Program-made: the position numbers and the translations under genes
In this document: piece after piece, positions 5,284 through 44,037 of the stretch
Layout: every line of letters begins with the position of its first letter
Position numbering within the stretch: the stretch's first letter is position 1
NCBI GenBank assembly: GCA_032718475.1
Contig: JAUCBJ010000321.1
Coordinates: 30,994-94,993, forward strand
Length of the DNA: 64,000 bases
Reading direction: 5' to 3'
Origin: Nemertoderma westbladi
Lineage: Eukaryota > Animalia > Xenacoelomorpha
The notes under the pieces: generated by a model
What the model was told of the DNA's origin: nothing
Databases searched by the model: none
Seen by the model: only the letters and a program-made list of their open reading frames with translations

Positions 5284-7167
5284 AAATTTGCCACCTCCAT
5301 GCAGCATAAAGGAGGTGCCACCTGTGGCTGCATAGACCCTTTCACTAGGGCAAATCTGGTCCGGTAACTAGGACCCCCTTCGTTCTGGGATAAGGACGCC
5401 CTTGGTCCTGGATTAAGGACCCATATACTTGGCTGCAGGGGTATATGGCCTGGCCAGGCAGATGGTGATCTACCAATGGCTGGTCAGGAGTAGAGTATTC
5501 TCATGTCCACTCTGAGTGCACTTCACTGCGACCTGCACCTGGCAGCAGGGGTAGGCCTACAGCGCATGGTCCAGCAAATGAGCTGCACAGCCAATGGTGG
5601 GTCATGTGCGTCAGAGTAGGTATGGGTGATGGGCCTCATATCTGACTCCACTGCGACACCCACCCTGTGGAATGGCAAACCAGGGTGTCCTTTCTGACCC
5701 AAACCCTGGGTCACCAGGGAGGCCAGATTGTGAGGGGGAGAGGGATTCTGGAGTTGGAGGCTACTCTCATGTTCCACCCCGACCAACTAAGCCATTGGTG
5801 AATCTGAGGCAAGTCACTAGACTAGCCTCACTTAACACCCTAACACTCAGGTGAGCTGACTGCCTTGGCAGATAAGCTTTCTCTTAGTGCATTAGCGGAG
5901 TGGTAATTCAAGAGCACCGAATGCAGACTGGACAGACTGATGAGGTTCTGATTAAGGACATGGGGGGTGGTTGGCGACTCGCCCTCGCATCAGCAGATGA
6001 TAGTGGCAATGGTGGAATTGGTCTATTGCTGAATCCAACTGCACATGCAGCATTGGAATCTCATTAATAGAACTAAACAATAGAATTCTATTAAATCGTA
6101 TCAGGGATCCCATTGAGAGACTGCTCCGTGGAAACCAGAATGGGTTCCGTAAAGGTCGTGGGACCACGGAGCCCATTTTGGCACTTAGAAGGATAATTTA
6201 AGAGTTATCAAAAAAGAAAGACAGACATCTGGCTGTTATCTTTGTTGACTTCTTCAAGGCCTTTGATTCAGTCTCTCGCTCACGTATGTTCAGCATACTT
6301 TCATTATATTGGATTCCTGGTGAAATTATTGCAGCAATCAGATCAGTATACGATGGTTCGACAACATTTGTGTCTACTGTTGATGGTGAGACAGAACCAT
6401 TTGAAGTATTATGGGGAGTCTTCCAAGGAGACACACTTGCGCCATTCTTGTTCCTAATTGTGGTTGACTAATGTTCTACACATGTCCTTAGATCATCATA
6501 ATGATGATGGGGTGATGATAACTCCACCTACTGGTTCCAGAAGTCGAGGAAATCCTGCCAAGTACCTAACTGATCTTGACTTTGCTGATGACTTAGGAGT
6601 ACTCTCAGAATCACTAGACGGAGCCCAACGGCTCCTTAGCTCTTTAGAACAGACTGCTTCTAGTGTTGGTCTTTTTATTAACTCCAAAAAGACCAAAATT
6701 TTGACAGTTAACTTTGAAAGTCCTCAGCAAGTCTCTGACCGGATGAGCATAAGCTCAAAGGATGGTATACTTGAGCATGTGGACGACTTCTGTTACCTGG
6801 GATCCGGAAGTCAGGTGAGGACCTTCGTATACGTAAGGGAAAAGCATGGGCATCCTTGAATAGGCTTTCCAGGATTTGGAAGTCACAGAGAATTAATCGA
6901 AAACTTAAGGTCCGATTATTTAGAGCAGCAGTAGTTACAGTACGCCTCTATGGGAGTCCATGCTGGGCTCTAACTGCTGAGGACACCAAATCTTTGGATG
7001 GCACATTCACAAGAATGCTACGCCGTTTTCATTGTGTCAAGTACAATGCACACATCTTCAACCAGCCACTATATAACATTGGAGATGTCTCATTGGTTTC
7101 CCCAAGCGTGACACTGGATCAAAGTCGCCTCCGCTTTGCAGGACATTGCTTTCGCCGTGAGGACCAG
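5284..7167 (+). mobile_element. RTE-clade LINE, internally deleted and frameshifted (GC-rich 5' region plus RT domain)
   Basis: Fragments NQNGFRKGR, IFVDFFKAFDS, GVFQGDTLAPFLF, LTDLDFADD, DFCYLGS and RLRFAGHCFRR across several frames. The endonuclease region appears to be missing. The 5' boundary is approximate. Confidence 0.85.
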
Positions 7168-7647
7168 GGGACTGGTGCAATATCTCAGGAGATACTTTTT
7201 TTAAAGGCTTGTAACTAAAGATTGAAATAAAAAATAGGGGGGGGGGGATGTGTAATAGAATTACTGTACGACACTATATTCCGGGGCATGGCGTTGTTGT
7301 ATGTATAAAACGATACAATTATCCCAGTTCAATAACTTCTCAAATTAGCACGAAATTCCGTAACGATCTGGTTTGAAATTCCGTAACGATACCAATAAAG
7401 CTGTAACTCCAAATTGCTCAGTAAATCTGCTTAATCTTTACCATGACGGGCATTTTGAACATCTCTTCTTACGCGCAATATGTTTAGTTAAAATTCAAAA
7501 CTCAATAATTCGCAGAACTTTCACTTTAAAAAAATTCCAAAAACCTCTTGTCTTTTTTTGTTTAATTCCGTGTGTAATTCTTATCAGAATAATTTTTCGC
7601 CAAGGAAAGGAACAGGTTGCAGAGACAGGTGGGGGAAGTTATGAACG

Positions 7648-8960: not shown

Positions 8961-9722
8961 ATGGCGTCAATTAACCCGCTTTCCAACCCAAAAGGCGTCC
9001 AGCTGCTATGCGAACTCTGTAAGAAACCAGCTTACCTACAATGCACGCGGTGTCGAGTTGCGTACTACTGTAGCTCAGAACACCAAAGGATTGACTATGT
9101 CGGCATCCACGAGAAGATATGCCAGTTGCTGATCCCGCTCCGACAGACAGGAGAGCCTTTCCTACAATCGGAGGAAGAGAGAGAGAACCGCAGACTCGCG
9201 TTGCTTACCCGCAAACAGCATATGATCGACCTTACGCGAACCACAGGTCAGAAACTCCTGTTCCAGGGATCCTTCACTGAGGCTGTCCCGGCAGCTCTAC
9301 AGTCGCTTGCGTTCAGCATCGACGTCTACGGACTGACTAGCGTCGAGTTGGTTCCTTCCTACCTGATCCTCGGTGAGGCGTCTATCGGCCTGGGACGGCT
9401 GGAACAGGCCGAGGAGTATCTCTCTCAGGCCCAGTGGACCGTCCTAAAATCTATCGACTGCGGGAACTTCTTTAAATCCCGTCTCTACCGCATTCTCGGT
9501 CTCCTCTACTCAACCAAGGGGGATTGCGACGAGGCGCTTAGGAACTTTGCCGACGACGTCTTCCACGCTTCAGAGGAATTTGGTACCGACGATATTCGCA
9601 CATCCGGTGGATATTACCATATGGCAAATGTGTTCTGGAAGTTGGAACAACCGGAAACCGCAAACAGTTTGTATCAACACGTTACTGAAATTTGGGCTGG
9701 TCATTTACGTCGAATGGTAAAG
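8961..9722 (+). CDS. ZMYND12: Zinc finger MYND domain-containing protein 12, exon 1
   Basis: NPLSNPKGVQLLCELCKKPAYLQCTRCRVAYYCSSEHQRIDYVGIHEKICQLL (MYND finger) followed by TPR-like helices (ELVPSYLILGEASIGLGRLEQAEEYLSQAQWTVLKS). Donor AAG|GTTGGT at 9722/9723, phase 0. Confidence 0.9.
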
Positions 9723-9812
9723 GTTGGTCAATTAATATTAGAGAGTAGAGGAATCCGGATGAGATTTACAAACTTCCATTGTATTTATTTTCCCAATTTT
9801 CTACCTTGGCAG

Positions 9813-9983
9813 ATACGATTACAGACTCCTGCGACACCCAAAGGCGTCGGACCCGAAGGCTCCGACAATGGGGTTGAGAAGCAGTTGGATGAGATGCTTG
9901 ACGAAGCCCAAGAGGCGGAGGCAGTGCAAGTTCTCTCCCACATATACAATCAGAGACGGGACGATACCGACACAAAAGCCGAT
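9813..9983 (+). CDS. ZMYND12: ZMYND12 exon 2
   Basis: Polypyrimidine tract plus CAG ends at 9812 (90-nt intron). Encodes IRLQTP...LDEAQEAEAVQVLSHIYNQR...KAD, including the conserved LDEAQEAEA motif. Donor GAT|GTTAGT at 9983/9984, phase 0. Confidence 0.78.
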
Positions 9984-10497
9984 GTTAGTAACCCAAACTA
10001 CTCAGTGAGGGGGGCTGTAAAGGGGCGAAACACAACTGAAAAGCACTGTCACTTTAACCTGCTTCTTTCCCACAATATTAAATATGAAACAAATGCACTA
10101 CTGTAATACCTACGACTGTATAATAGACTTCATGTTTTAATTAAATTTAATGGAATATCTTATTTATTACTTTACTAATTCTCACACCGCGCGGGGGTGT
10201 ATCTTTACTTTAATTTAAAAAATTAACTAAAAAAATATCCTCGCACAAATGCAACTTTCGAACGCCAATATTCGCCCTATTTTGCAACGAAATCGAGATT
10301 GTGTTTCATATTTGGAGTCCTTGCGTGGCCAGGATTCCGAACAATGACCTACTACAATATTATTATTATAATTAGTTATATTTTAATATATCTTAAAACT
10401 TATGAATCCTTCGCTTCATTATCTGTATAAAGCGCTATTTTCTCTGTATTTTCATTATGTGGTTCGAATTCATTTTATTTTATTTATGCTGAACAGC

Positions 10498-13400
10498 AAT
10501 TTGTCACTATCTCGCTGCAGAGGTTATGATGTTAATTTGCCACTATCTCGCTACAGGTAATCATGTTAATTTGCCACTATCTTGCTACAGATAATGATGT
10601 TAATTTGCCACTATCTCGCTACAGGTAATAATGTTAATTTGCCACTATCTCGCTGTGGGTAATGATGTTAATTTGCCACTATCTCGCTACAGGTAATGAT
10701 GTTAATTTGCCACTATCTCGCTACAGGTAATCATGTTAATTTGCCACTATCTCGCTACAGGTAATCATGTTAATTTGCCACTATCTTGCTACAGGTAATG
10801 ATGTTAATTTGCCACTATCTCGCTACAGGTAATAATGTTAATTTGCCACTATCTCGCTGTGGGTAATGATGTTAATTTGCCACTATCTCGCTACAGGTAA
10901 TGATGTTAATTTGCCACTATCTCGCTACAGGTAATCATGTTAATTTGCCACTATCTTGCTACAGGTAATCATGTTAATTTGCCACTATCTCGCTACAGGT
11001 AATAATGTTAATTTGCCACTATCTCGCTGTGGGTAATGATGTTAATTTGCCACTATCTCGCTACAGGTAATGATGTTAATTTGCCACTATCTCGCTACCG
11101 GTAATCATGTTAATTTGCCACTATCTCGCTACAGGTAATCATGTTAATTTGCCACTATCTGGGCTACAGGTAATCATGTTAATTTGCCACTATCTCGCTG
11201 TAGGTTATGATGTTAATTTGCCATATCTCGCTACAGGTAATCATGTCAATTTGCCACTATCTCGCTACAGGTAATCATGTTAATTTGCCACTATCTTGCT
11301 ACAGGTAATGATGTTAATTTGACACTATCTCGCTGTGGGTAATGATGTTAATTTGCCACTATCCCGCTACAGTTTATGATGTTTATTTGCCACTATCTTG
11401 CTATTATCTTGCTACGGGTAATGATGTTAATTTTCCACTATCTTGCTACAGGTAATGATGTTAATTTGCCACTATCCCGCTACAGGTTATGATGTTAATT
11501 TGCCACTATCTCGCTGTAGGTAATGATGTTAATTTGCCACTATCTCGCTACAGGTTATGATGTTAATTTGCCACTATCTGGGATACAGGTAATGATGTTA
11601 ATTTGCCACTATCTGGGCTACAGGTAATCAGGTTAATTTGCCACTATCTCGCTACAGGTAATCAGGTTAATTTGCCACTATCTCGCTGTAGGTAATGATG
11701 TTAATTTGCCACTATCTCGCTACAGGTAATCATGTTAATTTGCCACTATCTTGCTATTATCTTGCTACGGGTAATGATGTTAATTTGCCACTATCTTGCT
11801 ACAGGTAATGATGTTAATTTGCCACTATCTCGCTACTGGTAATGATGTTAATTTGCCACCATATCTCTACAGGTTATGATGTTAATTTGCCACTATCCTG
11901 CTACAGGTTATGATGTTAATTTGCCACTATCTTGCTACGGGTAATGATGTTAATTTGCCACTATCTTGCTACAGGTAATGATGTTAATTTGCCACTATCT
12001 CGCTACAGGTAATCATGTTAATTTGCCACCATCTCTCTACAGGTTATGATATTAATTTGCCACTATCTCGCTACAAGTAATAATGATGTTAATTTGCCAC
12101 TATCTCGCTACAGGTAATGATGTTAATTTGCCATTATCTTATTACAGTTTATGATGTTAATTTGCCACTATCTCGCTACAGGTAATAATGATGTTAATTT
12201 GCCACTATCTCGCTACAGGTAATAATGATGTTAATTTGCCACTATCCCACTACAGGTTATGATGTTAATTTGCCACTATCCCGCTACAGGTTATGATGTT
12301 AATTTGTCATTATCTTGCTACAGGTTATGATGTTAATTTGCCACTATCTGGGCTACTGGTAATCATGTTAATTTGCCACTATCTCGCTGTAGGTAATGAT
12401 GTTAATTTGCCACCATCTCTCTACAGGTTATGATGTTAATTTGCCACTATCTCGCTGTAGGTAATGATGTTAATTTGCCACTATCTCGCTACAGGTTATG
12501 ATGTTAATTTGCCACTATCCCGCTACAGGTTATGATGTTAATTTGCCACTATTCCGCTACTGGTTTTGATGTTAATTTGCCACTATCCCGCTACAGGTAA
12601 TAATGATGTTAATTTGCCACTATCTCGCTGTAGGTAATGATGTTAATTTGCCACTATCTCGCTGTAGGTAATGATGTTAATTTGCCACTATCCGCTACAG
12701 GTTATGATGTTAATTTGCCACTATCCCGCTACAGGTTTTGATGTTAATTTGCCTCTATCCCGCTACAGGTAATAATGATGTTAATTTGCCACTATCTTGC
12801 TACAGGTAATGATGTTAATTTGCCACTATCTCGCTACAGGTTATGATGTTAATTTGCCTCTATCCCGCTACAGGTTTTGATGTTAATTTGCCTCTATCCC
12901 GCTACAGGTTTTGATGTTAATTTGCCACTATCCCGCTACAGGTTTTGATGTTAATTTGCCTCTATCCCGCTACAGGTAATAATGATGTTAATTTGCCACT
13001 ATCTTGCTACAGGTAATGATGTTAATTTGCCACTATCCCGCTACAGGATATGATGTTAATTTGCCACTATCCCGCTACAGGTTATGATGTTAATTTGCCA
13101 CTATCCCGCTACAGGTTATGATGTTAATTTGCCACTATCCCGCTACTGGTTTTGATGTTAATTTGCCACTATCCCGCTACAGGTAATAATGATGTTAATT
13201 TGCCACTATCTCGCTGTAGGTAATGATGTTAATTTGCCACTATCTCGCTGTAGGTAATCATGTTAATTTGTCACTATCCCGCTACAGGTTATGATGTTAA
13301 TTTGCCACTATCTCGCTGTAGGTAATGATGTTAATTTGCCACTATCTCGCTGCAGGTAATGATGTTAATTTGCCACTATCCCGCTACAGGTTATGATGTT

Positions 13401-15788
13401 AATTTGCCACTATCCCGCTACAGGTTATGATGTTAATTTGCCACTATCCCGCTACAGGTTTTGATGTTAATTTGCCACTATCCCGCTACAGGTAATAATG
13501 ATGTTAATTTGCCACTATCCCGCTACATGTTATGATGTTAATTTGCCACTATCCCGCTACAGGTTTTGATGTTAATTTGCCACTATCCCGCTACAGGTTA
13601 TAATGATGTTAATTTGCCACTATCCCGCTACAGGTTATGATGTTAATTTGCCACTATCCCGCTACAGGTTTTGATGTTAATTTGCCACTATCCCGCTACA
13701 GGTAATAATGATGTTAATTTGCCACTATCTCGCTGTAGGTAATGATGTTAATTTGCCACTATCTCGCTGTAGGTAATGATGTTAATTTGCCACTATCTCG
13801 CTGTAGGTAATGATGTTAATTTGCCACTATCTCGCTACAGGTTATGATGTTAATTTGCCACTATCCCGCTACAGGTTATGATGTTAATTTGCCACTATCC
13901 CGCTACTGGTTTTGATGTTAATTTGCCACTATCCCGCTACAGGTTATGATGTTAATTTGCCACTATCCCGCTACAGGTTTTGATGTTAATTTGCCACTAT
14001 CCCGCTACAGGTAGTAATGATGTTAATTTGCCACTATCCCGCTACAGGTAATAATGATGTTAATTTGCCACTATCTCGCTGTAGGTAATGATGTTAATTT
14101 GCCACTATCTCGCTGTAGGTACTGATGTTAATTTGCCACTATCCCGCTACAGGTTATGATGTTAATTTGCCACTATCCCGCTACAGGTTTTGATGTTAAT
14201 TTGCCACTATCCCGCTACAGGTAGTAATGATGTTAATTTGCCACTATCTTGCTACAGGTAATGATGTTAATTTGCCACTATCCCGCTACAGGTTATGATG
14301 TTAATTTGTCACTATCCCGCTACAGGTTATGATGTTAATTTGCCACTATCTCGCTGTAGGTAATGATGTTAATTTGCCACTATCTCGCTGCAGGTAATGA
14401 TGTTAATTTGCCACTATCCCGCTACAGGTTATGATGTTAATTTGCCACTATCCCGCTACAGGTAATAATGATGTTAATTTGCCACTATCCCGCTACATGT
14501 TATGATGTTAATTTGCCACTATCCCGCTACAGGTTTTGATGTTAATTTGCCACTATCCCGCTACAGGTTTTGATGTTAATTTGCCACTATCCCGCTACAG
14601 GTAATAATGATGTTAATTTGCCACTATCTTGCTACAGGTAATGATGTTAATTTGCCACTATCCCGCTACAGGTTATGATGTTAATTTGTCACTATCCCGC
14701 TACAGGTTATGATGTTAATTTGCCACTATCTCGCTGTAGGTAATGATGTTAATTTGCCACTATCTCGCTGCAGGTAATGATGTTAATTTGCCACTCTCCC
14801 GCTACAGGTTATTATGTTAATTTGCCACTATCCCGCTACAGGTTATGATGTTAATTTGCCATTATCCCGCTACAGGTTATGATGTTAATTTGCCACTATC
14901 CCGCTACAGGTTATGATGTTAATTTGCCACTATCCCGCTACAGGTAATCATGTTAATTTGCCACTATCTCGCTGCAGGTAATCATGTTAATTTGCCATTA
15001 TCTTGCTACAGGTTATGATGTTAATTTGCCACTATCTCGCTGTAGGTAATGATGTTAATTTGCCACTATCCCGCTACAGGTAATCATGTTAATTTGCCAT
15101 CATTTCTCTACAGGTTATGATGTTAATTTGACACTATCTCGCTGTAGGTAATGATGTTAATTTGCCACTATCTCGCTACAGGTTATGATGTTAATTTGCC
15201 ACTATCTTGCTACAGGTGATCATGTTAATTTGCCACTATCTCGCTACAGGTAATGATGTTAATTTGCCACTATCTCGCTGCAGGTAATCATGTTAATTTG
15301 CCATTATCTTGCTACAGGTTATGATGTTAATTTGCCACTATCTCGCTGTAGGTAATGATGTTAATTTGCCACTATCCCGCTACAGGTAATCATGTTAATT
15401 TGCCATCATTTCTCTACAGGTTATGATGTTAATTTGCCACTATCTCGCTGAAGGTAATGATGTTAATTTGACACTATCCCGCTACAGGTTATGATGTTAA
15501 TTTGCCACTATCTCGCTGTAGGTAATGATGTTAATTTGCCACTATCCCGCTACAGGTAATCATGTTAATTTGCCATCATTTCTCTACAGGTTATGATGTT
15601 AATTTGCCACTATCTCGTTGTAGGTAATGATGTTAATTTGACACTATCCCGCTACAGGTTATCATGTTAATTTGCCACTATCTCTCTACAGGTTATGATG
15701 TTAATTTGCCACTATCTCTCTACAGGTTATGATGTTAATTTGCCACTATCTTGCTACAGGTTATGATGTTAATTTGCCATTGTCTCGC
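10498..15788 (+). repeat. 34-bp minisatellite (~155 copies) built from the ZMYND12 intron 2 / exon 3 junction
   Basis: Unit gt(t/a)at(g/c)atgttaatttgccactatc(t/c)cgctacag. The last partial copy is the start of exon 3 (gttatgatgttaatttgccattgtctcgc). Confidence 0.97.
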
Positions 15789-15987
15789 GATGCTACGGAA
15801 CATCCAGAGAATCGACGTAGAATCCTTGGCTTTCGCTCGAGAGGCTCGTGGATACGCTGAGACGATAACCGGTAACCAAGGGAGACGATTGGTTACAGAT
15901 GTTATTGAGTTTGCCAGCATGTTGGAGCCCTACAAGCCGCCAACGCCAATCGCTGGGGATGAGACAGATGTTATAGGCGCCGCCTAG
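15760..15987 (+). CDS. ZMYND12: ZMYND12 exon 3 (terminal)
   Basis: CAG|GTTATG at 15759/15760, phase 0, matches the exon 2 donor phase. Encodes VMMLICHCLAMLRNIQ...SLAFAREARGYAE..., which fits the expected C-terminal helices. TAG at 15985-15987 is followed by AT-rich UTR-like sequence. Confidence 0.78.
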   Translation, partial: VMMLICHCLAMLRNIQRIDVESLAFAREARGYAETITGNQGRRLVTDVIEFASMLEPYKPPTPIAGDETDVIGAA

Positions 15988-16260
15988 AGAACAGATCAGA
16001 AAGTTAATAAACCATATTTTTATCGCAAAAAAACATAATTTGATTTAAAATATCAATTATCATTGTAAATATTTGTATATATTGTAGAATGTTTATAACA
16101 TTGTAATTGTATTATATATTGTATAAATTGTTTATAATATTATAATTGTATATATTGAAATATATTTATTGTAATTATTTAACGAACCATCACCAAATTA
16201 ATATTTAACTTTTAAATTTATTGACATTATTTTAATTACTTTTGTTTCGCATTGCTTGTT

Positions 16261-18651
16261 ATATTAGGTGTATCGTATACCTCCGATATAAAAAAACATT
16301 GGCGCTATAATATTAGGTGTATCGTATATATACCTCCGATATAAAAAAACATTGGCGCTATAATATTAGGTGTATCGTATAACTCCAATATAAAAAAACA
16401 TTGGCGCTATAATATTAGGTGTATCGTATACCTCCGATATAAAAAAACATTGGCGCTATAATATTAGGTGTATCGTATACCTCCGATATAAAAAAACATT
16501 GGCGCTATAATATTAGGTGTATCGTATACCTCCGATATAAAAAAACATTGGCGCTATAATATTAGGTGTATCGTATACCTCCGATATAAAAAAACATTGG
16601 CGCTATAATATTAGGTGTATCGTATACCTCCGATATAAAAAAAACATTGGCGCTATAATATTAGGTGTATCGTATACCTCCGATATAAAAAAAACATTGG
16701 CGCTATAATATTAGGTGTATCGTATACCTCCGATATAAAAAAAACATTGGCGCTATAATATTAGGTGTATCGTATACCTCCGATATAAAAAAAAACATTG
16801 GCGCTATAATATTAGGTGTATCGTATACCTCCGATATAAAAAAACATTGGCGCTATAATATTAGGTGTATCGTATACCTCCGATATAAAAAAAACATTGG
16901 CGCTATAATATTAGGTGTATCGTATACCTCCGATATAAAAAAAAACATTGGCGCTATAATATTAGGTGTATCGTATACCTCCGATATAAAAAAACATTGG
17001 CGCTATAATATTAGGTGTATCGTATACCTCCGATATAAAAAAAACATTGGCGCTATAATATTAGGTGTATCGTATACCTCCGATATAAAAAAACATTGGC
17101 GCTATAATATTAGGTGTATCGTATAACTCCGATATAAAAAAAACATTGGCGCTTTAAAATTAGGTGTATCGTATACCTCCCATATAAAAAAACCATTGGC
17201 GCTATAATATTGGGTGTATCGTATACCTCCGATATAAAAAAAAACATTGGCGCTATAATATTAGGTGTATCGTATACCTCCGATATAAAAAAACATTGGC
17301 GCTATAATATTAGGTGTATCGTATACCTCCGATATAAAAAAAACATTGGCGCTATAATATTAGGTGTATCGTATACCTCCGATATAAAAAAACATTGGCG
17401 CTATAATATTAGGTGTATCGTATACCTCCGATATAAAAAAAACATTGGCGCTATAATATTAGGTGTATCATATACCTCCGATATAAAAAAAACATTGGCG
17501 CTATAATATTAGGTGTATCGTATACCTCCGATATAAAAAAAACATTGGCGCTATAATATTAGGTGTATCGTATAACTCCAATATAAAAAAAACATTGGCG
17601 CTATAATATTAGGTGTATCGTATACCTCCGATATAAAAAAACATTGGCGCTATAATATTAGGTGTATCGTATACCTCCGATATAAAAAAACATTGGCGCT
17701 ATAATATTAGGTGTATCGTATAACTCCGATATAAAAAAAACATTGGCGCTATAATATTAGGTGTATCGTATAACTCCGATATAAAAAAAACATTGGCGCT
17801 ATAATATTAGGTGTATCGTATACCTCTGATATAAAAAAACATTGGCGCTATAATATTAGGTGTATCGTATACCTCCGATATAAAAAAACATTGGCGCTAT
17901 AATATTAGGTGTATCGTATACCTCCGATATAAAAAAAACATTGGCGCTATAATATTAGGTGTATCGTATACCTCCGATATAAAAAAACATTGGCGCTATA
18001 ATATTAGGTGTATCGTATACCTCCGATATAAAAAAACATTGGCGCTATAATATTAGGTGTATCGTATACCTCCGATATAAAAAAAACATTGGCGCTATAA
18101 TATTAGGTGTATCATATACCTCCGATATAAAAAAACATTGGCGCTATAATATTAGGTGTATCATATACCTCCGATATAAAAAAACATTGGTGCTATAATA
18201 TTAGGTGTATCGTATACCTCCGATATAAAAAAAAACATTGGCGCTATAATATTAGGTGTATCGTATACCTCCGATATAAAAAAACATTGGTGCTATAATA
18301 TTAGGTGTATCGTATACCTCCGATATAAAAAAACATTGGCGCTATAATATTAGGTGTATCGTATACCTCCGATATAAAAAAACATTGGCGCTATAATATT
18401 AGGTGTATCGTATACCTCCGATATAAAAAAAACATTGGCGCTATAATATTAGGTGTATCATATACCTCCGATATAAAAAAACATTGGCGCTATAATATTA
18501 GGTGTATCATATACCTCCGATATAAAAAAACATTGGTGCTATAATATTAGGTGTATCGTATACCTCCGATATAAAAAAAAACATTGGCGCTATAATATTA
18601 GGTGTATCGTATACCTCCGATATAAAAAAAACATTGGCGCTATAATATTAG
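16261..18651. repeat. 49-51-bp minisatellite (~48 copies)
   Basis: Unit atattaggtgtatcgtatacctccgatat(a)7-9cattggcgctata. Length varies mostly in the A-run. Confidence 0.97.
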
Positions 18652-19030: not shown

Positions 19031-19419
19031 TAAAGTATCAACCAACCTGCTCCTTCCCCTTATATGGTGGGGTGGTCATTGGCTTTTGAAATTTTCCTAT
19101 TCATTTAGAGGAAATTTTTATAAAAATTCCAAATTTTAAAACCGTTTATCAAGATCTGTACCCGTATGCTAAGCTCGCTGACTTTCGTGGCTCGTCCCAC
19201 AACCATCCAGTTGTTTTCCATTTTCACACCATTGTTTATTATCCAATTTTCTGGTAAAGAAAATATAACCTTTCTAATCAATGTCATTTTTAATTCATTT
19301 TCCATATTGAAATCCACAGAATATTAATTTATAAAATCTATGGACAAAAAGGGAAATTTATACACTTACACAAAGGTGCTTAGTTTAAAGAAAGGTTGGG
19401 CATAAATGACAGGCAGAAA

Positions 19420-19991
19420 GACTGCGTAAGAGCCAAAACGGATTTCGACCAAGTAGATCAACAATAGCTCAGATACTTGCACTACGGAGATTGATTGAAG
19501 GAATTAAGTCAAAGAATCTCCCCGCAGTCATGACTTTTGTGGACTTCAAGAAGGCATTCGACTCCATCCATAGAGGTAAAATGCTTGAAATCCTAAGAGC
19601 TTATGGAATACCAGAAGTAATTGTTGCTGGCATTGGATTGTTATATTGTGACACAGAAGCGCAGGTACTCTCACCAGATGGTGAAACTGAGTTTTTCTCA
19701 ATCCTGGCTGGCGTACTGCAAGGTGACACATTAGCACCATTACTATTTGTAATTGTGCTGGATTATGCAATGAGGACGGCCACAAAGGGTGAAGATCTGG
19801 GATTCACACTTCAAGAACGCAGAAGTAGTAGGAAAGCGTAGTCGTGGACGACCTGCCATAACATATATAGTCAACTTGAAAGGGATACTGAACTTGGGAG
19901 AAACGAAATTGCGACAACTATGGAGAGTCGGGAAGCCTGGAAGGATCTCATTTCCACTGTCCGAGTTCGCTCGACCTAGTAGTAGTAGTAG
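19420..19991 (+). mobile_element. RTE-clade LINE fragment (second family): RT portion joined to the 3' end
   Basis: QNGFRP, FVDFKKAFDSIHRGKM and GVLQGDTLAPLLF, then a jump to RSRGRPAITY (RTE C-terminus) and a (TAG)n tail at ~19977-19991. Confidence 0.8.
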
Positions 19992-20145
19992 GGCATAGAG
20001 ATTTGGGGGACCCTTAAACAGAAAAATTTACAGAAACATTGCTGATTTTTTATACTCCATTTTCTGGTAAAAAGAAACATTACCTTTTAAATCAACGGCA
20101 TTTTATATTAGTTACCATATTGAAATCCATGGAATATTAAGTTAA

Positions 20146-23100: not shown

Positions 23101-24243
23101 CTTACACAAAGGTATTTAGAGATACATTGCTGCCACTTACACCAAGGTATTTAGAGATACATTGCTGTCACTCACACTAAGGTATTTAGAGATACATTGC
23201 TGTCACTTACACTAAGGTATTTAGAGATACATTGCTGCCACTTACACAAAGGTATTTAGAGATACATTGCTGCCACTTACACCAAGGTATTTAGAGATAC
23301 ATTGCTGTCACTTACACTAAGGTATTTAGAGATACATTGCTGCCACTTGCACAAAGGTATTTAGAGATACATTGCCGCCACTTACACTAAGGTATTTAGA
23401 GATACATTGCTGCCACTTACACTAAGGTATTTAGAGATACATTGCTGTCACTTACACTAAGGTATTTACAGATATATTGCTGCCACTTACACTAAGGTAT
23501 TTAGAGATACATTGCTGCCACTTACACAAAGGTATTTAGAGATACATTGCTGCCACTTACACTAAGGTATTTAGAGATACATTGCTGCCACTTACACTAA
23601 GGTATTTAGAGATACATTGCTGTCACTTACACTAAGGTATTTACAGATATATTGCTGCCACTTACACTAAGGTATTTAGAGATACATTGCTGCCACTTAC
23701 ACAAAGGTATTTAGAGATACATTGCTGCCACTTACACTAAGGTATTTAGAGATACATTGCTGCCACTTACACTAAGGTATTTACAGATATATTGCTGCCA
23801 CTTACACTAAGGTATTTAGAGATACATTGCTGCCACTTACACAAAGGTATTTAGAGATACATTGCTGCCACTTACACTAAGGTATTTAGAGATACATTGC
23901 TGCCACTTACACTATAAGGTATTTATAGATACATTGCTGCCACTTACACTAAGGTATTTAGAGATACATTGCTGCCACTTACACAAAGGTATTTAGAGAT
24001 ACATTGCTGCCACTTACACTAAGGTATTTAGAGATACATTGCTGCCACTTACACTAAGGTATTTAGAGATACATTGCTGCCACTTACACTAAGGTATTTA
24101 CAGATACATTGCTGCCACTTGCACAAAGGTATTTAGAGATACATTGCCGCCACTTACACAAAGGTATTTAGAGATACATTGCTGTCACTTACACTAAGGT
24201 ATTTAGAGATACATTGCTGTCACTTACACTAAGGTATTTAGAA
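20146..24243. repeat. 35-bp minisatellite (~117 copies) with higher-order patterning
   Basis: Unit attgctgccacttacactaaggtatttagagatac, with recurring ordered variants (tgtca, caaa, ccaa, cagatat). Confidence 0.97.
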
Positions 24244-33022: not shown

Positions 33023-36000
33023 ACCTGTAGGAACTGCTGTCTCTGGAACTCTCCTATAAACTCACCTGTAGGAACTGCTGTCTCTGGAACTCCCCTATAA
33101 ACTCACCTGTAGGAACTGCTGTCTCTGGAACTCCCCTAAACTCACCTGTAGGAACTGCTGTCTCTGGAACTCCCCTAAACTCACCTGTAGGAACTGCTCT
33201 CTCTGGAACTCTCCTAAACTCACCTGTAGGAACTGCTGTCTCTGGAACTCTCCTATAAACTCACCTGTAGGAACTGCTGTCTCTGGAACTCCCCTAAACT
33301 CACCTGTAGGAACTGCTGTCTCTGGAACTCTCCTATAAACTCACCTGTAGGAACTGCTGTCTCTGGAACTCCCCTAAACTCACCTGTAGGAACTGCTGTC
33401 TCTGGAACTCTCCTATAAACTCACCTGTAGGAACTGCTGTCTCTGGAACTCTCCTATAAACTCACCTGTAGGAACTGCTGTCTCTGGAACTCTCCTATAA
33501 ACTCACCTGTAGGAACTGCTGTCTCTGGAACTCTCCTATAAACTCACCTGTAGGAACTGCTGTCTCTGGAACTCCCCTAAACTCACCTGTAGGAACTGCT
33601 GTCTCTGGAACTCTCCTATAAACTCACCTGTAGGAACTGCTGTCTCTGGAACTCTCCTATAAACTCACCTGTAGGAACTGCTGTCTCTGGAACTCTCCTA
33701 TAAACTCACCTGTAGGAACTGCTGTCTCTGGAACTCTCCTATAAACTCACCTGTAGGAACTGCTGTCTCTGGAACTCTCCTATAAACTCACCTGTAGGAA
33801 CTGCTGTCTCTGGAGCTCTTCTAAACTCACCTGTAGGAACTGCTGTCTCTGGAGCTCTCCTATAAACTCACCTGTAGGAACTGCTGTCTCTGGAACTCTC
33901 CTATAAACTCACCTGTAGGAACTGCTGTCTCTGGAACTCTCCTATAAACTCACCTGTAGGAACTGCTGTCTCTGGAACTCTCCTAAACTCACCTGTAGGA
34001 ACTGCTGTCTCTGGAACTCTCCTATAAACTCACCTGTAGGAACTGCTGTCTCTGGAACTCTCCTATAAACTCACCTGTAGGAACTGCTGTCTCTGGAACT
34101 CTCCTATAAACTCACCTGTAGGAACTGCTGTCTCTGGAACTCTTCTAAACTCACCTGTAGGAACTGCTGTCTCTGGAACTCTCCTATAAACTCACCTGTA
34201 GGAACTGCTGTCTCTGGAACTCTCCTATAAACTCACCTGTAGGAACTGCTGTCTCTGGAGCTCTTCTAAACTCACCTGTAGGAACTGCTGTCTCTGGAGC
34301 TCTCCTATAAACTCACCTGTAGGAACTGCTGTCTCTGGAGCTCTTCTAAACTCACCTGTAGGAACTGCTGTCTCTGGAGCTCTCCTATAAACTCACCTGT
34401 AGGAACTGCTAGTCTCTGCAACTCTCCTAAACTCACCTGTAGGAACTGCTGTCTCTGGAGCTCTCCTATAAACTCACCTGTAGGAACTGCTGTCTCTGGA
34501 ACTCTCCTATAAACTCACCTGTAGGAACTGCTGTCTCTGGAACTCTCCTATAAACTCACCTGTAGGAACTGCTGTCTCTGGAACTCTCCTAAACTCGCCT
34601 GTAGGAACTGCTGTCTCTGGAACTCTCCTATAAACTCACCTGTAGGAACTGCTGTCTCTGGAACTCTCCTATAAACTCACCTGTAGGAACTGCTGTCTCT
34701 GGAACTCTCCTATAAACTCACCTGTAGGAACTGCTGTCTCTGGAACTCTTCTAAACTCACCTGTAGGAACTGCTGTCTCTGGAACTCTCCTATAAACTCA
34801 CCTGTAGGAACTGCTGTCTCTGGAACTCTCCTATAAACTCACCTGTAGGAACTGCTGTCTCTGGAGCTCTTCTAAACTCACCTGTAGGAACTGCTGTCTC
34901 TGGAGCTCTCCTATAAACTCACCTGTAGGAACTGCTAGTCTCTGCAACTCTCCTAAACTCACCTGTAGGAACTGCTGTCTCTGGAGCTCTCCTATAAACT
35001 CACCTGTAGGAACTGCTGTCTCTGGAACTCTCCTATAAACTCACCTGTAGGAACTGCTGTCTCTGGAACTCTCCTATAAACTCACCTGTAGGAACTGCTG
35101 TCTCTGGAACTCTCCTATAAACTCACCTGTAGGAACTGCTGTCTCTGGAACTCTCCTATAAACTCACCTGTAGGAACTGCTGTCTCTGGAACTCTCCTAT
35201 AAACTCACCTGTAGGAACTGCTGTCTCTGGAACTCTTCTAAACTCACCTGTAGGAACTGCTGTCTCTGGAACTCTCCTATAAACTCACCTGTAGGAACTG
35301 CTGTCTCTGGAACTCTCCTATAAACTCACCTGTAGGAACTGCTGTCTCTGGAACTCCCCTAAACTCACCTGTAGGAACTGCTCTCTCTGGAACTCTCCTA
35401 AACTCACCTGTAGGAACTGCTGTCTCTGGAACTCTCCTATAAACTCACCTGTAGGAACTGCTGTCTCTGGAACTCCCCTAAACTCACCTGTAGGAACTGC
35501 TGTCTCTGGAACTCTCCTATAAACTCACCTGTAGGAACTGCTGTCTCTGGAACTCTCCTAAACTCACCTGTAGGAACTGCTGTCTCTGGAACTCTCCTAT
35601 AAACTCACCTGTAGGAACTGCTGTCTCTGGAACTCTCCTATAAACTCACCTGTAGGAACTGCTGTCTCTGGAACTCTCCTATAAACTCACCTGTAGGAAC
35701 TGCTGTCTCTGGAACTCTTCTAAACTCACCTGTAGGAACTGCTGTCTCTGGAACTCTCCTATAAACTCACCTGTAGGAACTGCTGTCTCTGGAACTCTCC
35801 TATAAACTCACCTGTAGGAACTGCTGTCTCTGGAGCTCTTCTAAACTCACCTGTAGGAACTGCTGTCTCTGGAGCTCTCCTATAAACTCACCTGTAGGAA
35901 CTGCTGTCTCTGGAGCTCTTCTAAACTCACCTGTAGGAACTGCTGTCTCTGGAGCTCTCCTATAAACTCACCTGTAGGAACTGCTAGTCTCTGCAACTCT

Positions 36001-39000
36001 CCTAAACTCACCTGTAGGAACTGCTGTCTCTGGAGCTCTCCTATAAACTCACCTGTAGGAACTGCTGTCTCTGGAACTCTCCTATAAACTCACCTGTAGG
36101 AACTGCTGTCTCTGGAACTCTCCTATAAACTCACCTGTAGGAACTGCTGTCTCTGGAACTCTCCTAAACTCACCTGTAGGAACTGCTGTCTCTGGAACTC
36201 TCCTATAAACTCACCTGTAGGAACTGCTGTCTCTGGAACTCTCCTATAAACTCACCTGTAGGAACTGCTGTCTCTGGAACTCTCCTATAAACTCACCTGT
36301 AGGAACTGCTGTCTCTGGAACTCTTCTAAACTCACCTGTAGGAACTGCTGTCTCTGGAACTCTCCTATAAACTCACCTGTAGGAACTGCTGTCTCTGGAA
36401 CTCTCCTATAAACTCACCTGTAGGAACTGCTGTCTCTGGAGCTCTTCTAAACTCACCTGTAGGAACTGCTGTCTCTGGAGCTCTCCTATAAACTCACCTG
36501 TAGGAACTGCTGTCTCTGGAGCTCTTCTAAACTCACCTGTAGGAACTGCTGTCTCTGGAGCTCTCCTATAAACTCACCTGTAGGAACTGCTGTCTCTGCA
36601 ACTCTCCTAAACTCACCTGTAGGAACTGCTGTCTCTGGAGCTCTCCTATAAACTCACCTGTAGGAACTGCTGTCTCTGGAACTCTCCTATAATCTCACCT
36701 GTAGGAACTGCTGTCTCTGGAACTCTCCTATAAACTCACCTGTAGGAACTGCTGTCTCTGGAACTCTCCTATAAACTCACCTGTAGGAACTGCTGTCTCT
36801 GGAACTCTTCTAAACTCACCTGTAGGAACTGCTGTCTCTGGAACTCTCCTATAAACTCTACTGTAGGAACTGCTCTCTCTGGAACTCTCCTAAACTCACC
36901 TGTAGGAACTGCTGTATCTGGAACTCTCCTATAAACTCACCTGTAGGAACTGCTGTCTCTGCAACTCTCCTAAACTCACCTGTAGGAACTGCTGTCTCTG
37001 GAGCTCTCCTATAAACTCACCTGTAGGAACTGCTGTCTCTGGAACTCTCCTATAATCTCACCTGTAGGAACTGCTGTCTCTGGAACTCTCCTATAAACTC
37101 ACCTGTAGGAACTGCTGTCTCTGGAACTCTCCTATAAACTCACCTGTAGGAACTGCTGTCTCTGGAACTCTTCTAAACTCACCTGTAGGAACTGCTGTCT
37201 CTGGAACTCTCCTATAAACTCACCTGTAGGAACTGCTGTCTCTGCAACTCTCCTAAACTCACCTGTAGGAACTGCTGTCTCTGGAGCTCTCCTATAAACT
37301 CACCTGTAGGAACTGCTGTCTCTGGAACTCTCCTATAATCTCACCTGTAGGAACTGCTGTCTCTGGAACTCTCCTATAAACTCACCTGTAGGAACTGCTG
37401 TCTCTGGAACTCTCCTATAAACTCACCTGTAGGAACTGCTGTCTCTGGAACTCTTCTAAACTCACCTGTAGGAACTGCTGTCTCTGGAACTCTCCTATAA
37501 ACTCTACTGTAGGAACTGCTGTCTCTGCAACTCTCCTAAACTCACCTGTAGGAACTGCTGTCTCTGGAGCTCTCCTATAAACTCACCTGTAGGAACTGCT
37601 GTCTCTGGAACTCTCCTATAATCTCACCTGTAGGAACTGCTGTCTCTGGAACTCTCCTATAAACTCACCTGTAGGAACTGCTGTCTCTGGAACTCTCCTA
37701 TAAACTCACCTGTAGGAACTGCTGTCTCTGGAACTCTTCTAAACTCACCTGTAGGAACTGCTGTCTCTGGAACTCTCTTAAACTCACCTGTAGGAACTGA
37801 TGTCTCTGGAACTCTCCTATAAACTCTACTGTAGGAACTGCTCTCTCTGGAACTCTCCTAAACTCACCTGTAGGAACTGCTGTATCTGGAACTCTCCTAT
37901 AAACTCTACTGTAGGAACTGCTCTCTCTGGAACTCTCCTAAACTCACCTGTAGGAACTGCTGTCTCTGGAACTCTCATATAAACTCACCTGTAGGAACTG
38001 CTGTCTCTGGAACTCTCCTATAATCTCACCTGTAGGAACTGCTGTCTCTGGAACTCTCATATAAACTCACCTGTAGGAACTGCTGTCTCTTGAACTCTCC
38101 TATAAACTCACCTGTAGGAACTGCTGTCTCTGGAACTCTCCTATAAACTCTACTGTAGGAACTGCTGTCTCTGGAACTCTCCTAAACTCACCTGTAGGAA
38201 CTGCTGTCTCTGGAACTCTCATATAAACTCACCTGTAGGAACTGCTGTCTCTTGAACTCTCCTATAAACTCACCTGTAGGAACTGCTGTCTCTGGAACTC
38301 TCCTATAAACTCACCTGTAGGAACTGCTGTCTCTGGAACTCTCCTATAATCTCACCTGTAGGAACTGCTGTCTCTGGAGCTCTCCTATAAACTCACCTGT
38401 AGGAACTGCTGTCTCTGGAACTCTCCTATAATCTCACCTGTAGGAACTGCTGTCTCTGGAACTCTCCTATAAACTCACCTGTAGGAACTGCTGTCTCTGG
38501 AACTCTCCTATAAACTCACCTGTAGGAACTGCTGTCTCTGGAACTCTTCTAAACTCACCTGTAGGAACTGCTGTCTCTGGAACTCTCTTAAACTCACCTG
38601 TAGGAACTGATGTCTCTGGAACTCTCCTATAAACTCTACTGTAGGAACTGCTCTCTCTGGAACTCTCCTAAACTCACCTGTAGGAACTGCTGTATCTGGA
38701 ACTCTCCTATAAACTCTACTGTAGGAACTGCTCTCTCTGGAACTCTCCTAAACTCACCTGTAGGAACTGCTGTCTCTGGAACTCTCATATAAACTCACCT
38801 GTAGGAACTGCTGTCTCTGGAACTCTCCTATAATCTCACCTGTAGGAACTGCTGTCTCTGGAACTCTCATATAAACTCACCTGTAGGAACTGCTGTCTCT
38901 TGAACTCTCCTATAAACTCACCTGTAGGAACTGCTGTCTCTGGAACTCTCCTATAAACTCTACTGTAGGAACTGCTGTCTCTGGAACTCTCCTAAACTCA

Positions 39001-42000
39001 CCTGTAGGAACTGCTGTCTCTGGAACTCTCATATAAACTCACCTGTAGGAACTGCTGTCTCTTGAACTCTCCTATAAACTCACCTGTAGGAACTGCTGTC
39101 TCTGGAACTCTCCTATAAACTCACCTGTAGGAACTGCTGTCTCTGGAACTCTCCTATAAACTCTACTGTAGGAACTGCTGTCTCTGGAACTCTCCTAAAC
39201 TCACCTGTAGGAACTGCTGTCTCTGGAACTCTCCTATAAACTCACCTGTTGGAACTGCTGTCTCTTGAACTCTCATATAAACTCACCTGTAGGAACTGTT
39301 GTCTCTGGAACTCTCCTATAAACTCACCTGTAGGAACTGCTGTCTCTGGAACTCTCCTATAAACTCACCTGTAGGAACTGCTGTCTCTGGAACTCTCCTA
39401 TAATCTCACCTGTAGGAACTGCTGTCTCTGGAACTCTCCTATAAACTCACCTGTAGGAACTGCTGTCTCTGGAACTCTCCTATAAACTCACCTGTAGGAA
39501 CTGCTGTCTCTGGAACTCTTCTAAACTCACCTGTAGGAACTGCTGTCTCTGGAACTCTCTTAAACTCACCTGTAGGAACTGATGTCTCTGGAACTCTCCT
39601 ATAAACTCTACTGTAGGAACTGCTCTCTCTGGAACTCTCCTAAACTCACCTGTAGGAACTGCTGTATCTGGAACTCTCCTATAAACTCTACTGTAGGAAC
39701 TGCTCTCTCTGGAACTCTCCTAAACTCACCTGTAGGAACTGCTGTCTCTGGAACTCTCATATAAACTCACCTGTAGGAACTGCTGTCTCTGGAACTCTCC
39801 TATAATCTCACCTGTAGGAACTGCTGTCTCTGGAACTCTCATATAAACTCACCTGTAGGAACTGCTGTCTCTTGAACTCTCCTATAAACTCACCTGTAGG
39901 AACTGCTGTCTCTGGAACTCTCCTATAAACTCTACTGTAGGAACTGCTGTCTCTGGAACTCTCCTAAACTCACCTGTAGGAACTGCTGTCTCTGGAACTC
40001 TCATATAAACTCACCTGTAGGAACTGCTGTCTCTTGAACTCTCCTATAAACTCACCTGTAGGAACTGCTGTCTCTGGAACTCTCCTATAAACTCACCTGT
40101 AGGAACTGCTGTCTCTGGAACTCTCCTATAATCTCACCTGTAGGAACTGCTGTCTCTGGAGCTCTCCTATAAACTCACCTGTAGGAACTGCTGTCTCTGG
40201 AACTCTCCTATAATCTCACCTGTAGGAACTGCTGTCTCTGGAACTCTCCTATAAACTCACCTGTAGGAACTGCTGTCTCTGGAACTCTCCTATAAACTCA
40301 CCTGTAGGAACTGCTGTCTCTGGAACTCTTCTAAACTCACCTGTAGGAACTGCTGTCTCTGGAACTCTCTTAAACTCACCTGTAGGAACTGATGTCTCTG
40401 GAACTCTCCTATAAACTCTACTGTAGGAACTGCTCTCTCTGGAACTCTCCTAAACTCACCTGTAGGAACTGCTGTATCTGGAACTCTCCTATAAACTCTA
40501 CTGTAGGAACTGCTCTCTCTGGAACTCTCCTAAACTCACCTGTAGGAACTGCTGTCTCTGGAACTCTCATATAAACTCACCTGTAGGAACTGCTGTCTCT
40601 GGAACTCTCCTATAATCTCACCTGTAGGAACTGCTGTCTCTGGAACTCTCATATAAACTCACCTGTAGGAACTGCTGTCTCTTGAACTCTCCTATAAACT
40701 CACCTGTAGGAACTGCTGTCTCTGGAACTCTCCTATAAACTCTACTGTAGGAACTGCTGTCTCTGGAACTCTCCTAAACTCACCTGTAGGAACTGCTGTC
40801 TCTGGAACTCTCATATAAACTCACCTGTAGGAACTGCTGTCTCTTGAACTCTCCTATAAACTCACCTGTAGGAACCGCTGTCTCTGGAACTCTCCTATAA
40901 ACTCACCTGTTGGAACTGCTGTCTCTGGAACTCTCCTATAAACTCTACTGTAGGAACTGCTGTCTCTGGAACTCTCCTAAACTCACCTGTAGGAACTGCT
41001 GTCTCTGGAACTCTCCTATAAACTCACCTGTTGGAACTGCTGTCTCTTGAACTCTCATATAAACTCACCTGTAGGAACTGTTGTCTCTGGAACTCTCCTA
41101 TAAACTCACCTGTAGGAACTGCTGTCTCTGGAACTCTCCTATAAACTCACCTGTAGGAACTGGTCTCTGGAACTCTCCTATAATCTCACCTGTAGGAACT
41201 GCTGTCTCTGGAACTCTCATATAAACTCACCTGTAGGAACTGCTGTCTCTTGAACTCTCCTATAAACTCACCTGTAGGAACTGCTGTCTCTGGAACTCTC
41301 CTATAAACTCTACTGTAGGAACTGCTGTCTCTGGAACTCTCCTAAACTCACCTGTAGGAACTGCTGTCTCTGGAACTCTCCTATAAACTCACCTGTAGGA
41401 ACTGCTGTCTCTGCAACTCTCCTAAACTCACCTGTAGGAACTGCTGTCTCTGGAACTCTCCTATAAACTCACCTGTAGGAACTGCTGTCTCTGGAACTCT
41501 CCTAAACTCACCTGTAGGAACTGCTGTCTCTGGAACTCTCCTATAAACTCACCTGTAGGAACTGCTGTATCTGGAACTCTCCTAAACTCACCTGTAGGAA
41601 CTGCTGTCTCTGGAGCTCTCCTATAAACTCACCTGTTGGAACTGCTGTCTCTGGAACTCTCCAATAAACTCACCTGTAGGAACTGCTGTCTCTGGAACTC
41701 TCCAATAAACTCACCTGTAGGAACTGCTGTCTCTGGAACTCTCCTAAACTCACCTGTAGGAACTGCTGTCTCTGGAACTCTCCTATAAACTCACCTGTAG
41801 GAACTGCTGTCTCTGGAACTCTCCTATAAACTCACATATAGGAACTGCTGTCTCTGGAACTCTCCTAAACTCACCTGTAAGAACTGCTGTCTCTGGAACT
41901 CTCCTATAAACTCACCTGTAGGAACTGCTGTCTCTGGAACTCTCCAATAAACTCACCTGTAGGAACTGCTGTCTCTGGAACTCTCCTATAAACTCACCTG

Positions 42001-44037
42001 TAGGAACTGCTGTCTCTGGAACTCTCCTATAAACTCACCTGTAGGAACTGCTGTCTCTGGAACTCTTCTAAACTCACCTGTAGGAACTGCTGTCTCTGGA
42101 ACTCTCTTAAACTCACCTGTAGGAACTGATGTCTCTGGAACTCTCCTATAAACTCTACTGTAGGAACTGCTCTCTCTGGAACTCTCCTAAACTCACCTGT
42201 AGGAACTGCTGTCTCTGGAACTCTCCTATAAACTCTACTGTAGGAACTGCTCTCTCTGGAACTCTCCTAAACTCACCTGTAGGAACTGCTGTCTCTGGAA
42301 CTCTCATATAAACTCACCTGTAGGAACTGCTGTCTCTGGAACTCTCCTATAATCTCACCTGTAGGAACTGCTGTCTCTGGAACTCTCATATAAACTCACC
42401 TGTAGGAACTGCTGTCTCTTGAACTCTCCTATAAACTCACCTGTAGGAACTGCTGTCTCTTGAACTCTCCTATAAACTCACCTGTAGGAACTGCTGTCTC
42501 TGGAACTCTCCTATAAACTCACCTGTAGGAACTGCTGTCTCTGGAACTCTCCTATAAACTCTACTGTAGGAACTGCTGTCTCTGGAACTCTCCTAAACTC
42601 ACCTGTAGGAACTGCTGTCTCTGGAACTCTCCTATAAACTCACCTGTTGGAACTGCTGTCTCTTGAACTCTCATATAAACTCACCTGTAGGAACTGTTGT
42701 CTCTGGAACTCTCCTATAAACTCACCTGTAGGAACTGCTGTCTCTGGAACTCTCCTATAAACTCACCTGTAGGAACTGCTGTCTCTGGAACTCTCCTATA
42801 ATCTCACCTGTAGGAACTGCTGTCTCTGGAACTCTCATATAAACTCACCTGGAGGAACTGCTGTCTCTTGAACTCTCCTATAAACTCACCTGTAGGAACT
42901 GCTGTCTCTGGAACTCTCCTATAAACTCTACTGTAGGAACTGCTGTCTCTGGAACTCTCCTAAACTCACCTGTAGGAACTGCCGTCTCTGGAACTCTCCT
43001 ATAAACTCACCTGTAGGAACTGCTGTCTCTGCAACTCTCCTAAACTCACCTGTAGGAACTGCTGTCTCTGGAACTCTCCTATAAACTCACCTGTAGGAAC
43101 TGCTGTCTCTGGAACTCTCCTAAACTCACCTGTAGGAACTGCTGTCTCTGGAACTCTCCTATAAACTCACCTGTAGGAACTGCTGTATCTGGAACTCTCC
43201 TAAACTCACCTGTAGGAACTGCTGTCTCTGGAGCTCTCCTATAAACTCACCTGTAGGAACTGCTGTCTCTGGAACTCTCCAATAAACTCACCTGTAGGAA
43301 CTGCTGTCTCTGGAACTCTCCAATAAACTCACCTGTAGGAACTGCTGTCTCTGGAACTCTCCTAAACTCACCTGTAGGAACTGCTGTCTCTGGAACTCTC
43401 CTATAAACTCACCTGTAGGAACTGCTGTCTCTGGAACTCTCCTATAAACTCACATATAGGAACTGCTGTCTCTGGAACTCTCCTAAACTCACCTGTAGGA
43501 ACTGCTGTCTCTGGAACTCTCCTATAAACTCTCCTGTAGGAACTGCTGTCTCTGGAACTCTCCAATAAACTCACCTGTAGGAACTGCTGTCTCTGGAACT
43601 CTCCTAAACTCACCTGTAGGAACTGCTGTCTCTGGAACTCTCCTTTAAACTCACCTGTAGGAACTGCTGTCTCTGGAACTCTCCTATAAACTCACTGTAG
43701 GAACTGCTGTCTCTGGAACTCTCCTAAACTCACCTGTAGGAACTGCTGTCTCTGGAACTCTCCTAAACTCACCTGTAGGAACTGCTGTCTCTGGAACTCT
43801 CCTAAACTCACCTGTAGGAACTGCTGTCTCTGGAACTCTCCTAAACTCACCTGTAGGAACTGCTGTCTCTGGAACTCTCCTAAACTCACCTGTAGGAACT
43901 GCTGTCTCTGGAACTCTCCTTAAACTCACCTGTAGGAACTGCTGTCTCTGGAACTCTCCTAAACTCACCTGTAGGAACTGCTGTCTCTGGAACTCTCCTA
44001 AACTCACCTGTAGGAACTGCTGTCTCTGGAACTCTCT
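33023..44037 (-). repeat. 39/41-bp minisatellite (~270 copies, ~11 kb) built from the RAD21 exon 1 end plus 5' splice site
   Basis: Minus-strand unit gagagttccagagacagcagttcctaCAG|GTGAGTtt(at)ag. The first copy is coding sequence (EFQRQQFLQ). Confidence 0.97.

Follow-up and report, generated by a model that had tools for sequence, protein, structure and literature searches.

Here we describe a minisatellite of 34-nucleotide (nt) units at the 3' end of the second intron of a ZMYND12 gene in the xenacoelomorph Nemertoderma westbladi. The gene lies in a stretch of 64,000 nt (contig JAUCBJ010000321.1, positions 30,994 to 94,993 of the forward strand), hereafter the window, in whose own numbering positions are given. 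The 153 units copy the junction between intron 2 and exon 3, and the array is a 'mirage' minisatellite, a kind of repeat that has already been described. Apart from the true acceptor, 136 junctions present a decoy AG. A sequencing-run contig that likely represents spliced mRNA joins exon 2 to the last acceptor, the one adjoining exon 3. We consider an exon-anchored choice of this acceptor in a single step to be the probable explanation, with a likelihood of about 0.68.

The ZMYND12 gene and its junction array

The reading frame from 8961 encodes zf-MYND and TPR_12 domains, both above the Pfam cut-off, and the best homologs are named ZMYND12 and have 69–70% identity (here and for Rad21, the best 120 matches were listed). 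Donor/acceptor pairs were scored against a 114-homolog profile, and the best of the models tried has 3 exons and 2 introns and encodes 386 amino acids (aa), colinear with the homologs. Its exon 2/exon 3 junction is free of gaps, with a 23-residue spacing of conserved anchors equal to that of 101 of the 114 homologs. Together with contig 25 of run X4 (see below), these results bear out the gene identity and exon structure proposed in a first-pass annotation of the sequence. No ZMYND12 or Rad21 protein from the same species was present among the 120 matches listed per search. The features of the gene are as follows.

8961..9722, plus strand: ZMYND12 exon 1, coding part, with zf-MYND and TPR repeats (Pfam, homologs)
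9723..9812, plus strand: intron 1, 90 nt, GT-AG (best-scoring pair against the 114-homolog profile; skipped in X4 contig 25)
9813..9983, plus strand: exon 2 (profile model, X4 contig)
9984..10497, plus strand: unique 5' part of intron 2, with donor GTTAGT and a dispersed repeat near 10277–10332 (sequence, run contigs); the full intron 2 is 9984–15759
10468..10496, plus strand: T-rich tract with a terminal AG, putative ancestral acceptor, 5.26 kilobases (kb) upstream of the used one (sequence)
10498..15788, plus strand: 34-nt minisatellite, 153 units copying the intron 2/exon 3 junction, with 136 decoy AG junctions and 132 AG/GT (Tandem Repeats Finder, unit parsing)
15735..15759, plus strand: used 3' splice site with branch-point-like TTAAT (putative branch point A at 15738, −22), pyrimidine stretch and CAG (motif position; X4 contig 25 join at 15760)
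15760..15987, plus strand: coding part of exon 3, with 75 codons plus the stop, beginning with the last repeat copy (29 nt) (homolog alignment, X4 contig)
15988..16309, plus strand: 3' untranslated region (UTR) to the end of the X4 contig, with AATAAA at 16006 (X4 contig, sequence)

Intron 1 (9723–9812) is itself open in frame, and its retention would insert 30 residues and no stop. The first bases of intron 2 (9984–9987) and of exon 3 (15760–15763) share GTTA, a 4-nt direct repeat of the sort that an insertion could produce, or that may be due to chance.

Tandem Repeats Finder delimits the array at 10498–15788 with a period of 34, 153.5 copies, 89% matches and the consensus AATTTGCCACTATCTCGCTACAGGTAATGATGTT. 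Parsing by anchor (153 anchors) divides it into 153 units of 33–45 nt each; the uniform 34 nt of the first-pass annotation thus holds for most units but not for all. As that annotation had described, the unit consists of the first 27–29 nt of exon 3 and the last 5–7 nt of an acceptor. AG is kept at 137 of the 153 junctions, that is many but not all, and lost in 16. AG/GT (the slash marks the splice junction) is present at 133, CAG/GT at 109 and CAG/GTAAT at 51. The array and its copied junctions are therefore real, but the count of about 155 decoy acceptors falls to 136, of which 132 are dual AG/GT sites, and the statement that every copy offers CAG/GT has to be dropped. Variant units are clustered along the array.

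Direct joining to exon 2 yields the full C-terminus from a single acceptor, 15759, among the 154 AG dinucleotides in 9990–15800. There are 144 AGs in 10490–15759, and the other 143 array AGs run into a stop after 0–47 codons. The earlier claims that only the last acceptor gives the full protein, and that those before it frameshift or terminate, are thus confirmed. In-frame, stop-free mini-exons between an internal AG and a GT number 164 on paper, nearly all of them through GTs outside the junctions and a few through units of variant length. No AATAAA was found inside the array, and the AATAAA at 16006 lies 3' of the exon 3 coding part. The unique part of intron 2 contains two ATTAAA motifs (10077, 10140).

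The exon copy differs from the array, as had been noticed: its G at unit position 23 occurs in 0 of 152 array copies and its T at position 21 in 9 of 152. With the A of the array, residue 319 would be Tyr, whereas 113 of 114 homologs carry A, T, S, G or N at this place. The exon copy thus appears to be constrained.

Contigs from four public runs (X1–X4) carry the ZMYND12 gene; eight runs are in the search listing, none on record as RNA, which counts neither way. X1 is possibly the source of the window, X2 and X3 come from one sample and X4 from a third. In the three DNA-like runs X1–X3, contigs run through the ZMYND12 introns, and unit contigs reach a summed depth of 400–2160, which is not a copy number, against 7–55 on the flanks; this depth fits a high-copy array in two samples. 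Both array flanks continue into units in the run contigs. In X3, from the second sample, the array is present with a different first junction, and the AG at 10495–10496 is not kept. It could be argued that the assembly has collapsed or inflated the array, or that the array is private to one individual, and that the real gene has few copies, as no run contig spans the array. However, the array holds 1968 distinct 31-mers and its longest exact internal repeat is 191 nt. Because the units are so varied, no exact repeat exceeds this length and unit contigs are deep, an assembly artefact is unlikely as the source of the array, and with such contigs in runs of two samples and both flanks entering units we regard a gene with few copies as extremely improbable.

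Of 13 coding differences seen between the runs, 9 are synonymous and none creates a stop; the listed indels are all non-coding (intron, array or UTR). In exon 3 and its UTR (15884–16005), all four runs show the same five differences from the window, and X1 is identical to the window in exons 1 and 2. The window may carry the other haplotype at 15884–16005, or may switch haplotype across the array. At 16275, X1 and X2 contigs depart 15 nt into a 49-mer array into other unique DNA and the X4 contig follows the window to 16309; this divergence is possibly an allele without the 49-mer array at that place, or an insertion.

Choice of the exon 3 acceptor

Contig 25 of X4 (1652 nt, depth 328) skips the 90 nt of intron 1 at GT..AG, joins 9983 to 15760 with zero letters between them (record positions 1105/1106) and then runs to 16309, carrying the exon-specific bases of the last repeat copy. 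We read it as a transcript because two introns are lost exactly, and it likely represents spliced mRNA; the run is on record, as a guess, under the label 'DNA?'. On this reading the authentic, exon-adjacent copy is used for splicing, exon 2 is joined to exon 3 and the mRNA ends neither before nor within the array, as the first-pass annotation had supposed. Two X4 contigs lie on 15695–16330, neither of them on array units, and 10000–10274 has no cover; such holes were not counted as evidence on decoy use or on the ATTAAA motifs.

It seems plausible that the array originated in a 34-nt duplication made up of 7 nt from the acceptor's end and 27 nt from the start of exon 3, followed by expansion and turnover via slippage or unequal exchange. 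Its growth would have left the old T-rich tract (10468–10496) stranded on the 5' side, and from its sequence this tract is likely the ancestral acceptor. The AG at 10496 was rejected as a working acceptor, being out of frame and not kept in X3. The branch-point-like motif and pyrimidine stretch of the used acceptor consist of copied exon sequence. Exon 3 bases 33–39 agree in 6 of 7 positions with the final bases of the unit, and it is possible that the unit is exon-derived, with a 5-nt deletion; the data do not favour either route.

The terminal exon would be defined by its own exonic signals together with its 3' end (AATAAA at 16006). U2 would bind the branch-point-like motif at −22 in the adjacent unit, and the first AG downstream would be used. 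Scanning for AG starts at the branch point, and since no AG lies between this motif and the used site, scanning from there yields the right AG once the last unit has been chosen. The suggestion that a first-AG scanning model would fail here was therefore overstated. A donor-like site and further repeat come 34 nt after each decoy, delimiting a pseudo-exon that is likely too short for definition; only the last copy abuts a real terminal exon, hence it would likely be picked in a single step. In 135 of 137 acceptors, a YTRAY motif places its A at −21 to −23. Since the used site is ordinary both in pyrimidines (12/17, shared by 117 of 137 acceptors) and in predicted accessibility over −30..−1 (35 of 136 decoys are more open), position rather than strength would make the selection. 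A stronger pyrimidine tract at the used site, considered as a selector, was thus not seen. RNA structure was likewise rejected in this role, since 131 of 136 decoys are predicted to be more open than the used AG, whose branch region is average. We consider the array likely to be tolerated, near-neutral DNA with no regulatory job.

Several points weigh against a one-step, exon-anchored choice. The RNA nature of X4 is deduced from the contig, and a processed retrocopy would look identical, yet it would also record a spliced mRNA. The evidence is one contig from one sample, which has its own array length, not given by the contig; the run data are assembled contigs, and as these drop rare variants the contig gives no rate of decoy use. 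The mature join of exon 2 to exon 3 is compatible with removal of the intron in one or in several steps, and the exon definition step is a proposal for this organism. The true site has penultimate decoys at a distance of only 34 and 68 nt, and partial use of the closest pseudo-sites is known from human IFI6 and CBS (PMC1557585). Donor strength, on which the comparisons below depend, is a plain count of matches to a 9-nt consensus, and not the output of a trained model.

With 132 juxtaposed AG/GT sites, the core of a ratchet point, the intron could be removed by recursive splicing, exon 2 ratcheting along the array via zero-length exons, and the first-pass annotation had taken the internal copies for such points. 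However, a donor regenerated in this way has the GAT of exon 2 and not CAG on its exon side. Its match to the consensus is then 3–5 of 9, +5G is absent from all 132, and the intact donor that follows 34 nt later is the stronger one in 118 of them, equal in 11 and weaker in 3. When the ratchet donor is the weaker one in Drosophila, a cryptic exon is included (PMC8605326); here this would mean a frameshift. The same annotation had rated CAG/GTAAT a better regenerated donor than the GTTATG of the real exon start; the 51 such junctions exist, but the contrast is not general because 43 array AGs, including the true site, precede an identical GTTATG. A role of the copies as ratchet points is thus not supported, and we consider recursion very unlikely. 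Alternatively, CAG/GTAAT donors might join downstream decoy acceptors in a nested fashion, removing units and rebuilding AG/GT, before exon 2 joins the remainder. Since such events leave the mature mRNA unchanged, this scheme fits the X4 contig, and in their own context 118 of the 132 intact decoy donors match the consensus at 6–7 of 9 positions, as well as the two true ZMYND12 donors (6 of 9 each). On the other hand, +5G is found in 0 of the 132 dual decoys but in all three donors inferred to be real in the two spliced genes of the window, and nested splicing is superfluous for explaining the product, so that we hold it to be improbable.

It is also conceivable, if unlikely, that the choice is leaky, decoys being often used and wrong products degraded until the correct form accumulates. 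The presence of 136 near-identical acceptors, the stop within 47 codons after every wrong join and the partly used pseudo-sites nearest to the IFI6 and CBS donors (PMC1557585) all speak for this. However, contig 25 of X4 is unbroken across the junction. Under the rules of nonsense-mediated decay, a premature stop without a downstream junction largely escapes degradation. Exon 3 is the last exon, and for this reason wrong joins to the nearest decoys, which would lengthen the 3' UTR slightly, should largely escape decay.

Relation to known junction repeats

The term 'mirage' reportedly comes from Canestro et al. 2002, and the classical experiments with duplicated splice sites are said to be those of Reed and Maniatis 1986. 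The ZMYND12 array shows four features of the class: head-to-tail repeats that span a junction, many copies that keep AG, an authentic copy that is likely the one spliced, and internal homogenisation from which the boundary copy is excluded. A further trait of mirages is length instability between alleles or cells, and the observation bearing on it is the different first junction in X3, in contigs that stop short of spanning the array. Amphioxus mirages (Adh3, globins BflGb6 and BflGb9, troponin C, PGBD5) occur on the acceptor or the donor side with normal splicing kept, and their haplotypes differ (PMC3087553, PMC3902484). They share with the ZMYND12 array the boundary-spanning tandem copies, of which many but not all keep AG or GT, the boundary copy that escapes homogenisation and the normal splicing, and in BflGb6 the copied segment is likewise the intron 3' end and the exon start. 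The differences are in number, 153 units in ZMYND12 as compared to 3–6 in BflGb6 and 2–7 in PGBD5, in the dual AG/GT unit with its own branch-point-like motif, in the location at a terminal exon, and in the host. Genes in the window are intron-poor (none in an MRPL43-like frame, two in ZMYND12, one in Rad21), and in a ZMYND12 tree of 30 rows, 29 of which are named homologs chosen from 120, the window sequence is on a long branch and not grouped with Branchiostoma.

Human variable number tandem repeats (VNTRs) that span junctions are known in F7 intron 7 (37 bp), CBS intron 13 (31 bp), IFI6, LMNB2 and PDGF, as donor arrays of 5–25 copies; in F7 the identical donor copies are functional and only the exon-adjacent one is used (PMC1557585). 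Here too identical splice sites recur inside the intron, use is confined or nearly confined to the exon-adjacent one and position beats strength. In contrast to these donor arrays, which resemble that of Rad21 (see below), the ZMYND12 array is their mirror on the acceptor side, with a length about 6 times that of the largest one listed in that source. In Drosophila, ratchet points occur singly in long introns, are conserved and have a donor that outcompetes the downstream one (PMC8605326). They have in common with the ZMYND12 sites a juxtaposed AG/GT and a downstream donor a short way on, whereas the latter are repeat copies whose regenerated donor is weaker in 118 of 132.

In a model attributed to Rogers, introns are gained via tandem duplication of AGGT. 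Repeats at human exon-intron boundaries can create new introns (PMC2812944). A unit with AG/GT can similarly be donor and acceptor here, and the repeats become intronic. However, the donor of intron 2 is part of unique DNA, 514 nt ahead of the array, and exon 2 sequence is absent from the unit. For these reasons the array appears to have lengthened intron 2, and creation of the intron is not supported; the two splice sites do not both come from the duplicated unit, the intron start and the exon 3 start sharing only GTTA. In the literature searched, mostly without subscription papers, no report of arrays of this size, genome-wide or on the acceptor side, was found, and we do not claim that the present one is the largest.

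A mirror array in Rad21 and its surroundings

The neighbouring Rad21 gene, which converges on ZMYND12, carries an array of the opposite direction. Its features and the remaining ones of the window are given below.

33023..44036, minus strand: Rad21 donor array, 39–41-nt units copying the exon A end and donor, with 247 CAG/GT sites (Tandem Repeats Finder, sequence; predicted donors)
45303–44008, minus strand: Rad21 exon A (sequence)
30250–29558, minus strand: further Rad21 exon (sequence)
2376–3068, plus strand: MRPL43-like gene, intronless (Pfam L51_S25_CI-B8)
48296–51877, minus strand: presumably a BEL/Pao-like pol, 1193 aa (sequence motifs)
54719–57076, plus strand: presumably a reverse transcriptase (RT) like that of long interspersed nuclear elements (LINEs), 785 aa (sequence motifs)
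61206–63455, plus strand: presumably a Penelope-like RT, 749 aa (sequence motifs)
1–840, 6000–7200 and 19400–19850: fragments that we take to be broken LINE pieces (sequence motifs)

In the Rad21 array of about 11 kb, 230 of the 247 sites read CAG/GTGAGT. The first three sites are 39 nt apart, which preserves the frame; farther on, the spacing is mostly 41 nt. With the acceptor at 30251, only donors 1–3 are in frame, and the predicted proteins have 662, 675 and 688 aa. Both ends of the intron read CAG/GT. A run of CCACAG/CCACAA hexamers (45 copies, 32343–32613) lies inside this intron. Between the converging ZMYND12 and Rad21 genes are further minisatellites at 16261–18651 (49 nt), 20145–24250 (35 nt) and 24946–28826 (41 nt), of which the 35-mer has a minus-strand GTAAGT. 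A hidden gene at these three arrays was rejected, as no convincing exon was seen in the edge translations, which were inspected by eye and not by profile search.

The five arrays fill 26.7 of the 64 kb, and 2 of the 3 introns in the window's two spliced genes carry a junction array (153 and 247 sites). Under uniform seeding, at least 2 of 5 arrays would fall on 6 junctions with a probability of ~4e-4, in one window that was chosen after the fact. All five consensus units hold AGGT on one strand, as do 21–28% of random unique 35–49-mers. One may speculate that minisatellites are seeded preferentially at splice junctions, and that dual AG/GT units form a self-collapsing, splice-neutral satellite which could grow almost without limit, as unit-to-unit splicing removes units and rebuilds the site; we consider this proposal doubtful.

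As the mirage class is already known, models of splicing are not overturned by the ZMYND12 array. The novelty is one of scale, with 153 units and a neighbour of 247 donors as compared to 2–25 copies in the published cases compared here, and the arrays of ZMYND12 and Rad21 present the acceptor and the donor directions in one organism. They also call for caution in gene prediction and short-read assembly. The 136 near-identical acceptors, with their small variant haplotypes, constitute a natural test in which long or junction reads could identify the copy that is used and the decay of use with distance.

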